Positions 1 through 5,400 of a stretch of 8,328 nt of DNA are shown here, in pieces. The DNA is from Promethearchaeota archaeon (GTDB lineage Archaea; Asgardarchaeota; Thorarchaeia; Thorarchaeales; Thorarchaeaceae). Numbering within the stretch: the stretch's first letter is position 1; the number at the start of each line of letters is the position of its first letter. A program made the translations under genes and the position numbers. The notes under the pieces were generated by a model. The model was not told where the DNA came from. It was given only the letters and a program-made list of their open reading frames with translations, and searched no databases. The stretch is taken from positions 1 through 8,328 of the forward strand of contig JALVPN010000219.1 in the NCBI GenBank assembly GCA_027031765.1, in the 5' to 3' direction.

Positions 1-1197
1 GACATGGAGCTGACATTCACAGTTGCGACCTTTGGCGGACGGATGCTGGTCGACATGGCACACCACTCCAGCGATGACCCTGACGACCCGTCAAGCTACC
101 GGTACTTTGCCGAGTACCTCCGTGAGAACGGGGTCACGATGGGCACCTTTGGAGACCCGAATGACATTGCGCAGAGGCGCTTCGACCGGGCCACACTGGG
201 GACGTGTGAGGCCCTGCTGATAATGGACACCGAGACCAATTACGGGGAGAGTGAGATTGCAGCATTCCACGACTTCGTCAGAGATGGTGGTACTCTCCTT
301 GTGATGTCCGAGTACTATGACAACCGCAGCAACACTGCGAGCTTCGGGATAGATGCGTACAACAAGATACTGGAGCCATTTGGCATCCAGTGTGAACGGT
401 TCACCGTTGGCGGGTACCCGGAGGAGAACATGGGACATGTCTACGGTGCAGACCATGGGGGTGCGGTAGACGACGACCCGCTGACGGAAGGGGTGCGGAA
501 CATCTACGTGCTCCTCGGCAGTGCATTCACCGTCGACCCGTCCAGGGCACACGGACTGTTGTGGTATGATGCCGCCAGACAACACGCACTTGTGGCCACG
601 GCCCGCTACGGTCAGGGGCGTGTCATAGCAGTATCTGACGGCTCGACCCTGTATGACGACATCCTCTACGACGCAATCCGCAACGGGGCCGACAACCTCG
701 CGCTGCTGCACAACATAGCATCACTTGTGATACCGGAGGCCCCAAGGATATACGAGGTGCAGACCAAGTTCGACAGGATAGGCCAGCCCGGGAACGTGAC
801 GGCCTGGGTCTTTGACGATGACCTGAGCAACGTCACAATCACAGTGACCACACCCAGCGGCCAGAACATCACTTCCCCGGTAGTGGAGCGGCTTGGTTAC
901 GAGTTCATGCTCGACTTCCCAGTGGACACGGGTGGCTTCTACGTCGTCACAGTGCGGGCGACCGATGCGGCTGGGCACACGAAGGAGGTACGGGAAACAG
1001 TGCTCGTGCCTGTCCCGGCCGTGGACGATGTGTTCACCATGAGCGTGCTCGGGTCGCTCCTAGTGGTGGTGGTCGCCGGACTCGCATACGTCGGCTGCAA
1101 GCGGTTCAGACGGCCCATGGGAGGCCGTGAGGAAGAGGTCGAGTGGGAGCCGGTTTGGGACGACAGTGGACAGACGCCCCCACCAGTCATCGAATAG
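1..1197 (+). CDS. 5'-truncated type I membrane protein: GldG/IFT52-like (DUF4350, class I GATase-like fold) domain, Ig-like domain, C-terminal TM helix and acidic tail; probably the C-terminal part of an S1P/SKI-1-like S8 protease
   Basis: The ORF track gives 4..1197, but codon 1-3 (GAC) is in frame with no stop, so the gene probably starts upstream. Motifs: RMLVDMAHH, YFAEYLRENG, LLIMDTETNYGESEIAAFHDFVRDGGTLLVMSE, YGQGRVIAVSD. A beta-rich segment follows (VTAWVFDDDLSNVTITVTTPSG ... YVVTVRATDAAG). Hydrophobic helix VFTMSVLGSLLVVVVAGLAYVGC (1030-1098) is followed by KRFRR. Four N-x-S/T sequons lie in the ectodomain. Stop TAG at 1195-1197. Confidence 0.85.
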   Translation, partial: DMELTFTVATFGGRMLVDMAHHSSDDPDDPSSYRYFAEYLRENGVTMGTFGDPNDIAQRRFDRATLGTCEALLIMDTETNYGESEIAAFHDFVRDGGTLLVMSEYYDNRSNTASFGIDAYNKILEPFGIQCERFTVGGYPEENMGHVYGADHGGAVDDDPLTEGVRNIYVLLGSAFTVDPSRAHGLLWYDAARQHALVATARYGQGRVIAVSDGSTLYDDILYDAIRNGADNLALLHNIASLVIPEAPRIYEVQTKFDRIGQPGNVTAWVFDDDLSNVTITVTTPSGQNITSPVVERLGYEFMLDFPVDTGGFYVVTVRATDAAGHTKEVRETVLVPVPAVDDVFTMSVLGSLLVVVVAGLAYVGCKRFRRPMGGREEEVEWEPVWDDSGQTPPPVIE

Positions 1198-2470
1198 GCC
1201 CGTAGGTCTGTTCCAGCAGGCGCCTGATCCGGTCATGCACCGGGTCCAGCAGCGGGGCCTGCTCCAAGGTCACACCAGCAAGGACGCGCTTGTAGAGCTG
1301 AAGGCCTACGACAGACGCCATGCGGCTTGCAATGACCTGACCGCCCACGAGACGGCCCTCCTTTGTGGTCACAAGGGCGACCTTGGTCATCTCCGCAGTG
1401 TCCTCGATGACCTCAACGTCCGTTTCCACTCCGAGGGACGCAGCAACTGTTGACGAGTAGCCGACACACAGGACATCAGTCTCGAAGACCCTGTCATACT
1501 GGAGGCGCAGGGATACGTCCCTGAACCGTTTCCGACGGCCGAGCGCAGCAACAGCTGCCTGTCTGCCACCGCGTGCTGCGGCACTGGCCACAGGCAGGAG
1601 CACCGGCTTGCCGGTCAGTGCGTCCGGTATCTCTGCACAGTCACCCACTGCAAACACGTTCTCAACAGATGTGCGCATCTGCTCGTCAACCAGCACACCG
1701 CCAGCAGGGCCGAGCTCGAGGCCCAGTTCCTTGGCAAGTGCAGTGTTAGGCCTCAGGCCGGTGACACAGAGCACCGCATCAACATCGAGGTCGTCACCAC
1801 CCACCACCACGCACCGGGCCTGCTCCTCACCCACGATTGCCTCGGGGCTCCTCCCAAGGTGGAGGTGCACACGTGGTGCCACTCTTGCTGCGAGGTCCTC
1901 GCTCAGGGGCACCTCGAGTAGTCTTCGCATCAGCCGTGAGCGGACGACCAGGTGCACAGTCTTGCCCATCCTCTTGAGGCGCTCGGCCATCTCGAGGCCG
2001 ATATAGCCGGCACCAATCACTGCGACTGTCGACACATGGGCAAGGTACTCGCCGGCCCTGGAGGCGTCACGGATGTCCCTTATCGTGAACACACCGTCCA
2101 GGTCCACGCCCGGGATAGGTGGCAGTGCTGGCACTCCCCCGAGGGCAAGGATCAGACGGTCGTACTCCTCGACGAAAGTACTACCGTTAGGGGCACGACA
2201 GTCGAGGCGGTTGTCCTCCACGCTGCCCCCAACAACGGTCACACCTGTCTTCACCTTGATGCCAGCCCCTGCGAGTGTCTGGAGCGACCACTGGGGTACT
2301 GTGAGCTCTTTGGGCCAAGGCGACTCTAGGGCCATTGCCACACCCGGGCGTCTGTGAGCATCGTGTGTCTCATCGGTGAGGACAGCCACTTCCGCGGACT
2401 TGTCAAAGGTCTTCGCTGTGAAGGCCGCGGCAGCGCCCCCTGGGCCATAGCCGACAACTACAATCTTCAA
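1187..2470 (-). CDS. FAD-dependent pyridine nucleotide-disulfide oxidoreductase family protein (CoA-disulfide reductase/NADH oxidase-like, redox Cys absent)
   Basis: N-terminal FAD motif KIVVVGYGPGG, LILALGG, NAD(P)H motif VIGAGYIGLEMAE, GLRPNT, second FAD motif TSVENVFAVGDC, and a shortened dimerisation domain. The TTG start (2468-2470) is required to keep the GxGxxG motif and overlaps the upstream TGA stop. Confidence 0.93.
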   Translation of the reverse strand: MKIVVVGYGPGGAAAAFTAKTFDKSAEVAVLTDETHDAHRRPGVAMALESPWPKELTVPQWSLQTLAGAGIKVKTGVTVVGGSVEDNRLDCRAPNGSTFVEEYDRLILALGGVPALPPIPGVDLDGVFTIRDIRDASRAGEYLAHVSTVAVIGAGYIGLEMAERLKRMGKTVHLVVRSRLMRRLLEVPLSEDLAARVAPRVHLHLGRSPEAIVGEEQARCVVVGGDDLDVDAVLCVTGLRPNTALAKELGLELGPAGGVLVDEQMRTSVENVFAVGDCAEIPDALTGKPVLLPVASAAARGGRQAAVAALGRRKRFRDVSLRLQYDRVFETDVLCVGYSSTVAASLGVETDVEVIEDTAEMTKVALVTTKEGRLVGGQVIASRMASVVGLQLYKRVLAGVTLEQAPLLDPVHDRIRRLLEQTYGPIR

Positions 2471-5400
2471 TTCCTGAGACCCCCGCGCATCTTGAGGAGG
2501 ACAACAACCACTACTACCGCCACGGCACCCACACCGATGACAATGAGAGGTGTCGTGTCCTCAACGACTGCAATCGAGCCAGCATAGGCCTCGATAACGT
2601 TACCATAAAGGCTTACCGCGACTGCATAGACATCATACTCACCTGGCGCGAACCCGGACAGCGTGACAGAGAAGTTGTACACTCCACGGCTACCCGACAG
2701 TGTGAGGTTCACACACACACCATAGTCGGACTTCAAAGACAGGTACACCTGGTCAACTAGCAGGTAGCCGTCGAGCACGACGTGGCCCGACAGGACGCCG
2801 GGGCTCCACAGGCCCAGCACCACTGTGTCTTGGTCAAGGGTCACATTGCGGAATGCGATGTTGGCCGACATGCCGGCAGAGAGGACTACCGGTGGCAGCA
2901 CCAGCGCCCCCACACCATCGCTCACGTTGAGACAGAGCCATGTGATGCCAGACTGCCCGGATGGCAGCTCAAGTCGTAGCGAGAGAGCGCGACCACTGAC
3001 TGTACTGGTGTTGAGGAGCTGGTAGTCCGTAGAGACCAGGCCCCATCCCCACTGGAGGTCACTACTGGGTGTGTCACGGTCGTAGGCCTCCGCATAGATG
3101 TCCACAGCACTGCCCTCCTCGGTCAACTGCAGGCGCTGGACCCACGGGTGCCAGGTACATACGACGTCAACGTACCCGGTGGTGTCGTAGTCGGACACAT
3201 TCCCTGATACCATCGTGACAGATAGGCGCCCGAGCCCGGACGCTTCCGGACGCTCTGTGGTGACCAGAACCGTCTTGGCCCCAGTAGTCACAGACACCTG
3301 CATGGTGGATGGCTGGTAGGTGGTGTCATCCCACACGTATGCTGTTGACGTGCCGTCTGTGACATTCACCATGATGTCAGCGCCTCCAGCCCCGGTCTCC
3401 AGACTCTTGTCGGTGTCCCACCTGATGGAGAGGGTCCTACCGGTCAGTCCAGGCGGGCCTGCAAACGCCACGATAACACTGAGCGTGTCGAGCTCTGCAT
3501 ATGTGTGGACGCTGAGGATGTCCACGGCAGGGGAGATACCGGGGTCGTGCGGGTCGTCAATGACGCCGCCGATGCCGGTCCACTCGTGGACGGCAGTGAC
3601 ATTCGTCAGTGACCTGTTGAGCGAGTACTGTACGGCGAGAGGGGCGTCCACACGGCCGTAGCCCCACGACTGCGAGGGTGTCGAGTAGTGGGCCACCATG
3701 CCACCCGCAGACTGCACGAGGGCACTGTAGTCGGCCCACGGGTCCCTGCGACCGGATGCCTGCCGGACGAGTGCCAGTACTCCAGCGACATGCGGGGCTG
3801 CCATGCTTGTGCCTGCGCGTGTCCGCCACAACGACGTTGTTGACGGAGCGGCAGCCGTGATTGTCGAGCCGGGGGCCGCCACTTCAGGCTTGGGAAAACC
3901 ATCGACACGTGGCCCGCGGCTGGAGGAGGACAGGAACTCGCCATCAGTGTCGACGAAGGCACTCACGCAGACACCGTAGTCCGCAGTACCAGGGGAGCTT
4001 ATTGTGTGTGTCATGTCGAGGTGGTCTGTCAGACGCAAGAGCGAGGAGCTCCAGTCGCCGTCCCAGGCGTAGACGTCGACGGTCACAGGGGGGCCGGATG
4101 GGTTGTCGACCTCAATGGCCCACATCCCCGAGTCAATGTGCTGTTGTGGTTCTGAGAGCTGGACGACGAGCCTGTTGGTGCCGCGTGCACTCACATCTGC
4201 AAACAGCGAGACGTTCAGTACCGGCTCCTCCACGTATGCTGCTGAGCCCACAATGGACTCAAAGGGGCCGAAGGTAACGGCCTCGCCCGAGGGCGGCCTG
4301 AATATGATGGACTCGTCACGGTCAGTGCTGCGCCACAGGATGTTGATGTAGGAGTAGACGGGAGGGTTGCTGACCGAGAGGCCCACCGTGCCGGACTGGC
4401 CCGCGGCCACTGTCAGGCGTGCGTGCTTGCTCCGTCCGCCAAGGTTTCCGGCTGCAAGCGATGACAGAGTGCCGTTCGCAATGAAGGCCCTACTGGTGGC
4501 CAGGTCCTCGGGGTCAGTACCGTCGAGGAAGCCCAAGTAGCTTGAGAAACTCATGTTGATGATATCAGCATCCTGTTCTATAGCGAAACTGATACCGTCG
4601 AGTACGTCAGCCGAGTCAAGTCCACTCTGGACTACAATCAGATCCGCACCCGGGGCCACACCAACACGCTGTGTGAAACCGGGCTGGCCGCCTACAATCG
4701 TCGATGCCACGTGCGTCCCATGACCGTGGTAGTCAGTGACAGAAAGTGCCTCTGTCAGGTTCACCCCGCGGACGTAGACCTTCTGCCCCATCTGGTCGTA
4801 TAGTACTGCCACCTTGGACTCGCCAAGGACGACGACATCATCGTCAGGGAGCGTTACAGTGCCGTCCCCGTTGCCGTCGATACCACCCAGCCACCTGTCA
4901 CCATCGGTGAACGTGAAATGCCCATCGCCCCCCACATCAATGAACATGTAGTCCGAACTCAGGTCGTAGTTGTGGCCTGGCTGGTGCAGCACTGTCGCGA
5001 CCGGGCCCTCGTTGTCGTCAGCATACCCGTCACGGTCGAGGTCAACATAGAACGCCCCGTCGGAGAGGAGCACATCGAAGGGACCGGCACTCCGACGCCA
5101 GAAGGAGGGGTGCAACCAGTCGACGCCCGTGTCCAGTACTGCGACCCGGACTCCATAACCATCGATTGCCTGGCCATCAACGTGAAGACTATGCCACACC
5201 TGGTCAGCACCTGTCCAAGGTACGGACTCCACCAGCGAGGGGTAGAACTTCTTGCTGCCCGAGAATGCCCGCAGCAGGCCGAGCTGTTCCAGACGGTGGA
5301 CAGACGCCGCAGAACGTACCGATGCCAAGTACAGTTCTCCGACACGGACGGGCGTCCCGTGCCGGTAGCGCAGGTCAACACCGAGGCGGGCAACAGTAGC

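Follow-up and report, generated by a model that had tools for sequence, protein, structure and literature searches.

A membrane-anchored S8 protease of Thorarchaeota with a domain layout resembling that of eukaryotic site-1 protease

The locus and the complete gene

The window analysed in this study is a stretch of 8,328 nucleotides from a Promethearchaeota archaeon of the Thorarchaeia (assembly GCA_027031765.1, contig JALVPN010000219.1, here C219). It begins at base 1 of its contig, within an open reading frame (ORF) that is open at its 5′ end and runs to nucleotide 1197 (Table 1). This ORF probably codes for the 398 C-terminal residues of a Thorarchaeota type I membrane protease 955 residues long, which has a body plan like that of eukaryotic site-1 protease (S1P, MBTPS1), belongs to an Asgard-wide family and would act in limited proteolysis. 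In eukaryotes, SREBP, ATF6 and related factors undergo regulated intramembrane proteolysis, which is started by S1P. One DNA sequencing run containing the stretch was obtained from a hydrothermal-vent metagenome and may be the origin of the sequence, and no RNA sequencing run holding it was found among the runs listed.

The window fragment showed 100% identity across its entire 398 residues to a 955-residue database protein (P0076), whose named relatives are annotated as "S8 family serine peptidase" of Candidatus Thorarchaeota. Residues 1–557 of P0076 are coded, again with 100% identity, on a second contig from this genome, at its 3′ end (G000:C73:14164-15834). The gene was found uninterrupted in an independent metagenome contig (L079), whose positions 9672–14167 are identical to nucleotides 1–4496 of the window (4,496 bases). 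Since the N-terminal part is located on C73 and an intact copy exists on an independent contig, the gene is split only by an assembly break. At the end of C73 (last ~50 bases, end of L080, compared with window positions 1–10) the gene could be followed up to GACATGG, after which unrelated GC-rich sequence was present; this end is an assembly break or a chimeric contig end, and no genuine disruption of the gene. A gene start at the ATG at nucleotide 4 was considered and rejected because the same DNA on the independent contig runs on upstream into one 955-residue gene.

A previous sequence-only reading of the window had proposed that a subtilase domain was missing upstream and that the whole would be an archaeal type I membrane protease. 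In the upstream sequence retrieved from C73 a Peptidase S8 domain was found with its Asp, His, Asn and Ser set intact, so that the absence of such a domain cannot be held against the proposal. The complete protein, from a Thorarchaeota (Asgard) organism, contains a signal peptide, the S8 domain, a single transmembrane (TM) helix and a tail, in agreement with the predicted membrane topology. The five motifs, TM helix and tail that had been recognized in the window were likewise all present where that reading had placed them (Table 1).

The order of parts in P0076 is a Sec-type signal peptide, a propeptide similar to those of Tk-SP and the I9 family, S8, a beta-sandwich, a GIFT/DUF4350 domain, an immunoglobulin (Ig)-like stalk, the TM helix and a tail of 32 residues. 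Structures were predicted with AlphaFold2 without templates, and the alignments used (A1 and A3) were made only of relatives gathered here. The full model reached a predicted local distance difference test (pLDDT) value of 90 and a predicted template modelling score (pTM) of 0.84, and the model of the post-catalytic part alone a pLDDT of 94. In the full model the propeptide extends over residues ~40–125, S8 over ~145–452, the beta-sandwich over ~458–566, GIFT over ~568–803, the Ig-like domain over 806–893 and the TM helix over 900–927, followed by the tail.

Residues D170, H203, N300 and S394 of P0076 were invariant in an alignment of 87 relatives. This Asp-His-Ser order with an oxyanion Asn, together with the PF00082 match recorded for P0076, places the protein in the Peptidase S8 family; the orthologue P0001 matched PF00082 with an E value of 2.9e-54. 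The beta-sandwich that follows aligned by VIA with S1P residues 478–616 and with the C-domain of Tk-SP. The window fragment matched Pfam DUF4350 (PF14258) with 37.1 bits (cut-off 30.4), and in view of this score and of its fold the domain was assigned to GIFT/DUF4350; a weak match to Pfam ABC_transp_aux was also obtained. No Cys-His-Glu triad was conserved in this domain, where the invariant alignment columns contained only D, G and L. Filamin repeats matched the stalk region at an E value of 3e-4, and PKD and Filamin each matched four of 77 family members.

Table 1. Features of the window, with nucleotide positions of the whole stretch.
Feature	Position	Strand	Basis or remark
3′ part of the S8-GIFT protease gene, with stop codon	1–1197	+	Codes for residues 558–955 of the 955-residue P0076; 5′ end truncated at the contig border
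Final strand of the P-like, Tk-SP C-domain-like beta-sandwich after S8	1–27	+	Strand 554–566 of the full model
GIFT/DUF4350 domain, GATase1-like alpha/beta fold	31–738	+	P0076 ~568–803; contains all five motifs; Pfam DUF4350 5.2e-9, above cut-off
Motif RMLVDMAHH	40–66	+	
Motif YRYFAEYLRENG	97–132	+	
36-residue block LLIMDTET...SEYYD	214–321	+	
Motif AYNKILEPFG	355–384	+	
Motif GQGRVIAVSDGSTLYDD	610–660	+	
Ig-like (filamin/PKD-type) beta-sandwich stalk	745–1008	+	P0076 806–893; strands 806–893 in the models
Single TM helix	1030–1098	+	Hydrophobic stretch VFTMSVLGSLLVVVVAGLAYVGC; helix 900–927 in the model
Cytoplasmic tail	1099–1194	+	From the sequence: basic stop-transfer KRFRR, acidic Trp motif EVEWEPVW, C-terminal PPPVIE
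Pyridine-nucleotide-disulphide oxidoreductase, coenzyme A-disulfide reductase/Nox-like	1187–2470	−	NCBIfam scores below cut-offs
Second membrane-anchored subtilase, 1063 residues	2467–5658	−	S8 matched in two stretches; TM helix at the end, very short tail
Tetratricopeptide repeat (TPR) protein, 674 residues	6087–8111	+	TPR_12, MalT-like TPR; C-terminal region without assignment

The tail showed a pattern, made of a basic run, (D/E)EWE and PPPxIE at the extreme C-terminus, found again in the majority of the Thor-type orthologues listed. This conserved tail looks like a docking site for a cytoplasmic partner. The tails of the paralogue and of the remoter Asgard S8-GIFT proteins described below are of other kinds (zinc ribbon, helical, or short basic in remoter ones).

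Comparison with site-1 protease and related structures

In the layout described for S1P, a signal peptide precedes the A and B pro-domains and Peptidase S8; a "P-like" beta-sandwich subdomain (479–616) and a GIFT subdomain (617–998) follow, and the chain ends in a TM helix with a short tail behind it (PMC11231238; PMC12067269). In comparison with solved S1P (PDB 8UW8, 8UWC and 9CSD), P0076 has the same order of parts from the signal peptide through to the short cytoplasmic tail, and S8, beta-sandwich, GIFT, C-terminal TM helix and short cytosolic tail were all recovered in the models. When the full model was compared with the PDB using Foldseek, as the sequence-only reading had recommended, human S1P was the best whole-protein match (9CSD_A, E 2.3e-43, 756 columns; 8UW8_A, 5e-41), with Tk-SP behind it (5e-37). 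VIA-align superposed 590 residues, model 142–802 on S1P 190–872, with a Z value of 41.1 and a root-mean-square deviation (rmsd) of 8.6 Å. No alignment in the ESM Atlas was longer than that with a eukaryotic MBTPS1 ("site-1 protease") cluster (595 residues), which also had the highest TM-score by query (0.51). S1P was still first in Foldseek when the post-catalytic model was used alone (3e-15, 438 columns). A language-model search for look-alikes also ranked a plant MBTPS1 cluster first, but its value of 0.83 was under the level that counts.

Several differences from S1P accompany this likeness. Sequence identity was only ~21–25%. S1P, which has R-x-(L/V/I)-x specificity and a SPRING-type cofactor, carries A and B pro-domains with staged autocleavage, whereas a single compact propeptide (~40–125) was seen in the P0076 model, and the archaeal protein has an additional Ig-like stalk between GIFT and the TM helix. 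Its acidic-Trp and PPPxIE tail differs from that of S1P, and both SPRING and the SREBP and ATF6 substrates of S1P are eukaryotic. On the modelled structures, the domain order and overall shape hint at an archaeal root of S1P.

The individual domains, taken one by one, weigh against a specific affinity with S1P. The sequence-only reading had itself held that a domain no nearer to S1P than to generic GldG, DUF4350 or IFT52 domains would count against it, and at the domain level this is what was found by profile, by VIA and by Pfam counts. In a HMMER comparison of the GIFT profile with the PDB (177,635 sequences) IFT52 scored 37 bits (1.9e-8) and S1P 27.6 bits (E 1.7e-5). With VIA, the GIFT domain gave Z 21.7 (rmsd 2.8, 205 residues aligned) for IFT52, and Z 18.2 both for S1P and for OST48. 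Among the 77 family members (E ≤ 0.01), 76 matched ABC_transp_aux, 74 DUF4350, 59 IFT52_GIFT and 43 MBTPS1_4th. In a shape search of the ESM Atlas, the post-catalytic model taken by itself returned bacterial DUF4350 fusions on top, and no S1P cluster was among the matches. For the beta-sandwich, no match to MBTPS1_3rd (Ig-like/P-like, PF23094) was obtained at E ≤ 0.1 in P0001 or P0002, nor was this family among those matched at E ≤ 0.01 in the 77 members, and only the fold aligns. The S8 domain of an orthologue, used as a phmmer query, matched Tk-SP with 182 bits (E 1.5e-52), subtilisins with 80–89 and S1P with 71, so that both Tk-SP and the subtilisins scored above S1P. The rmsd of 8.6–10.5 Å to the solved S1P structure further indicates a domain packing that is similar rather than identical. 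GIFT domains are moreover promiscuous, being fused elsewhere to GH88 and to S49 peptidases, and an independent fusion is therefore plausible. Limited proteolysis of envelope or secreted proteins, towards which we lean over bulk digestion, is what we infer from an orthologue that is near-universal and syntenic in the family and from a strongly conserved tail.

A specific S1P affinity of the GIFT domain was thus not upheld, since IFT52, DUF4350 and GldG-type models score as well or better. Judged from the sequence profile, the match of GIFT to S1P is nevertheless more than chance. Against MBTPS1_4th (PF23090, the "fourth GATase-like domain" of S1P), which has a cut-off of 27, the window protein reached no more than 19 bits, and among the nine GIFT-like loci of the genome this gene was the only one to match that family. 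A few remoter Asgard S8-GIFT proteins exceeded the cut-off (e.g., 31.1 bits; precomputed PF23090 labels) and others favoured IFT52_GIFT; the relative scores of the two families were inconsistent across the Asgard S8-GIFT proteins. The profile of the whole post-catalytic part matched S1P in the PDB through GIFT alone (21.6 bits), with nothing gained for the sandwich. The HMMER alignment of the GIFT profile to 8UW8/8UWC placed the S1P ...SDWYN block and GGGRIVLYGDSNCLDD opposite their counterparts in the archaeal family, and the GIFT motifs of S1P are colinear with the archaeal ones. Three of the five S1P motifs that had been given in the sequence-only reading, these two included, were recovered in this way, and the other two were found in none of the results. 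The likeness to S1P is architectural and not domain-specific, and it is the combination of domains that survives.

The single-domain relatives lack this combination. The GIFT domain of IFT52 (PDB 5FMR and 5FMS), the best single-domain match by profile and by structure, belongs to a cytosolic protein that serves as a scaffold in the ciliary transport complex and does not have the protease body plan, which is not shared either by the bacterial DUF4350 and GldG-type proteins, devoid of S8. Tk-SP of Thermococcus kodakarensis (PDB 3AFG and 9UES) is the closest solved relative of the propeptide, S8 and beta-sandwich (VIA Z 46.6–47.8); with its solved chains (505–539 residues) the match ends with the beta-sandwich, reaching model residue 558 at most, and nothing in them corresponds to the GIFT domain, stalk, membrane anchor or cytoplasmic tail of P0076.

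The proximity of S8 and sandwich to Tk-SP (Z 46–48 and the phmmer score above), together with domain scores that show no special affinity for S1P, speaks for another explanation, in which a Tk-SP-like archaeal subtilase gained a promiscuous GIFT/DUF4350 domain and an anchor and digests environmental protein for uptake, with a convergent likeness to S1P. A weak match to the Tk-SP N-propeptide in a remoter relative (L091) points in the same direction. If the likeness were convergent, the gene would code for a common kind of surface subtilase to which an accessory domain had been added. S1P was, against this, the longest and best structural match of the whole chain, and a strongly conserved cytoplasmic tail is hard to square with a feeding enzyme. 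With the distribution data given below also taken into account, such a nutritional role is possible but doubtful.

The window fragment, comprising GIFT, sandwich, TM helix and short tail, was also colinear with the whole of OST48/Wbp1 (PDB 6S7O_G, 8B6L_N and 6C26_B), with a Foldseek alignment of 437 columns to a 410-residue chain (E 2.4e-13) and a VIA Z of 18.2 (model 119–445 on chain 45–413). OST48, unlike P0076, has no protease part, and its domain orientation differs from that of the model (rmsd 13–23 Å). Pfam OST48_N (PF03345) was matched neither by the window fragment nor in the 77 family members, and the protein, in which the module is fused to a protease, does not fall into the OST48/WBP1 family of stand-alone GIFT-sandwich-TM proteins carrying OST48_N. 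WBP1 homologues among Asgard archaea have been reported only in Heimdallarchaeia (Eme et al., PMC10307638), and a 2026 structural-clustering preprint mentions OST48 and no protease. Because of the colinearity with OST48, the family may bear on the origin of eukaryotic GIFT proteins.

This colinearity and the presence of the ATG at nucleotide 4 could suggest that the window contains a separate gene, for a stand-alone DUF4350 protein or an OST48/WBP1-like membrane protein without a protease. The frame is, however, open to the contig end, the independent contig continues into one 955-residue gene whose N-terminal part is present in the same genome, and all orthologues are single frames of 920–1100 residues. 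A protein starting from nucleotide 4 would moreover be without a signal peptide, and OST48_N was unmatched. A separate gene is therefore extremely improbable.

Distribution among Asgard archaea

Orthologues with 46–54% identity were found in 21 of the 24 genomes of the same family, as single open frames of about 920–1100 residues, and 56 Thorarchaeota loci came up when species genomes were scanned with a pattern for close relatives. Remoter S8-GIFT proteins were named as belonging to Asgardarchaeia, Odinarchaeia, Ranarchaeia and Lokiarchaeota. The GIFT profile matched 299 of the 301 sampled Asgard genomes. When long GIFT-bearing frames from other Asgard families were inspected, S8 was present upstream in the same frame in nine of ten, with S8 at ~150–550 and GIFT at ~560–890 in seven of those nine. 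All eight sampled frames that reached the C-terminus began with a signal and had a single TM helix near their end, with zinc ribbon, helical or short basic tails.

A search of 1.84 billion protein representatives gave hits among which S8-GIFT fusions were confined to this family and its kin, all named kin being Asgard; ten other long hits of this search contained GIFT domains but no S8. Word-seeded protein searching, which does not extend as far as S1P, brought up archaeal family members and generic GIFT proteins only. Genomes outside the Asgard phylum were reached only by this single-sequence search of protein representatives and by the close-relative pattern scan, so that S8-GIFT fusions may exist elsewhere.

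These data bear in both directions on the nutritional explanation. S8 loci number at least nine in the genome, this gene has two other large S8 genes within ~10 kb, and GIFT domains are nearly ubiquitous in the sampled Asgard genomes and occur in many fusions, all of which speaks for it. The orthologue is, on the other hand, near-universal in the family with fixed synteny, and the spacing of S8, a sandwich of ~110 residues and GIFT recurs across Asgard families, which argues against it.

A further explanation is that the protein is a true forerunner of S1P, the S8-sandwich-GIFT-TM fusion having arisen once in Asgard archaea and been inherited by eukaryotes, and that it already makes the first cut in membrane proteins, ahead of an M50 site-2 protease. 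It is favoured by the shared body plan and top structural match, by the occurrence of the architecture in many Asgard lineages, by the restriction of S8-GIFT fusions, among the hits of the large search, to this family and its Asgard-named kin, by the relatives with MBTPS1_4th scores above the cut-off (31.1 bits; precomputed PF23090 labels), and by the three M50 loci of the genome. The M50 genes are uninformative because they are universal, being present in 14 of 14 control genomes. The S8 domain was not nearest to S1P, the sandwich had no sequence match to the third domain of S1P, the GIFT domain scored IFT52 equally or higher, and the tails of the Asgard proteins and S1P differ. We consider this descent unlikely. 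The same degree of reserve applies to the fuller proposal that the Asgard S8-sandwich-GIFT-TM proteases are the direct source of S1P, which would make them an overlooked eukaryotic signature protein, that they already cleave in a site-1 manner ahead of M50, and that the GIFT-sandwich-TM module may be the stock of OST48/WBP1.

In the literature searched, nothing pairing "site-1 protease" or "GIFT domain" with Asgard was found, nor was a prokaryotic counterpart of the S1P body plan described. With an S1P-like body plan present in many Asgard lineages, phylogeny and biochemistry can be used to test directly where S1P came from, and the family would supply a candidate first-cut protease of archaeal intramembrane proteolysis.

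Related GIFT domains (e.g., G141:C30:46986-47705 and G001:C10:45334-45990) were also seen in stand-alone frames of ~305–320 residues and in frames of ~810–826 residues. One protein of 818 residues (L096) showed S8, sandwich, GIFT and TM helix without the Ig stalk, the most S1P-like minimal layout seen. A paralogue of 900 residues in the genome itself (G000:C198, i.e., L021 4753–7452, minus strand) contained S8, GIFT, a TM helix and a different tail, with a short masked run read as X.

Possible mode of action and gene neighbourhood

An intact catalytic set, an export signal, one anchor with a basic cluster on its inner side and a non-catalytic GIFT domain are apparent from the sequence and the models. 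For the membrane protease proposed here, the precursor would be exported by Sec, and the propeptide would assist folding and then be removed by autocleavage. The mature enzyme would be tethered on the outer face of the membrane, with the sandwich and GIFT domain presumably packed on the catalytic domain. In S1P the substrate pocket for P4-Arg lies between the S8 and GIFT subdomains (PMC12067269); because of this position, the archaeal GIFT domain may, by analogy, likewise narrow the choice of substrates.

The gene order of S8-GIFT protease, convergent oxidoreductase and second membrane subtilase (Table 1) was kept in five genera of the family. No GIFT match in Pfam was obtained for the second subtilase. 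Upstream of the protease gene (L079 1–7814; G000:C73:6493-7353) were an ORF of 116 residues, a coiled-coil-like protein of 346 residues, an arylsulfotransferase/TIG-like protein of 1058 residues and a frame of ~1610 residues with an S8 match. Large surface proteins and proteases abound in this neighbourhood.

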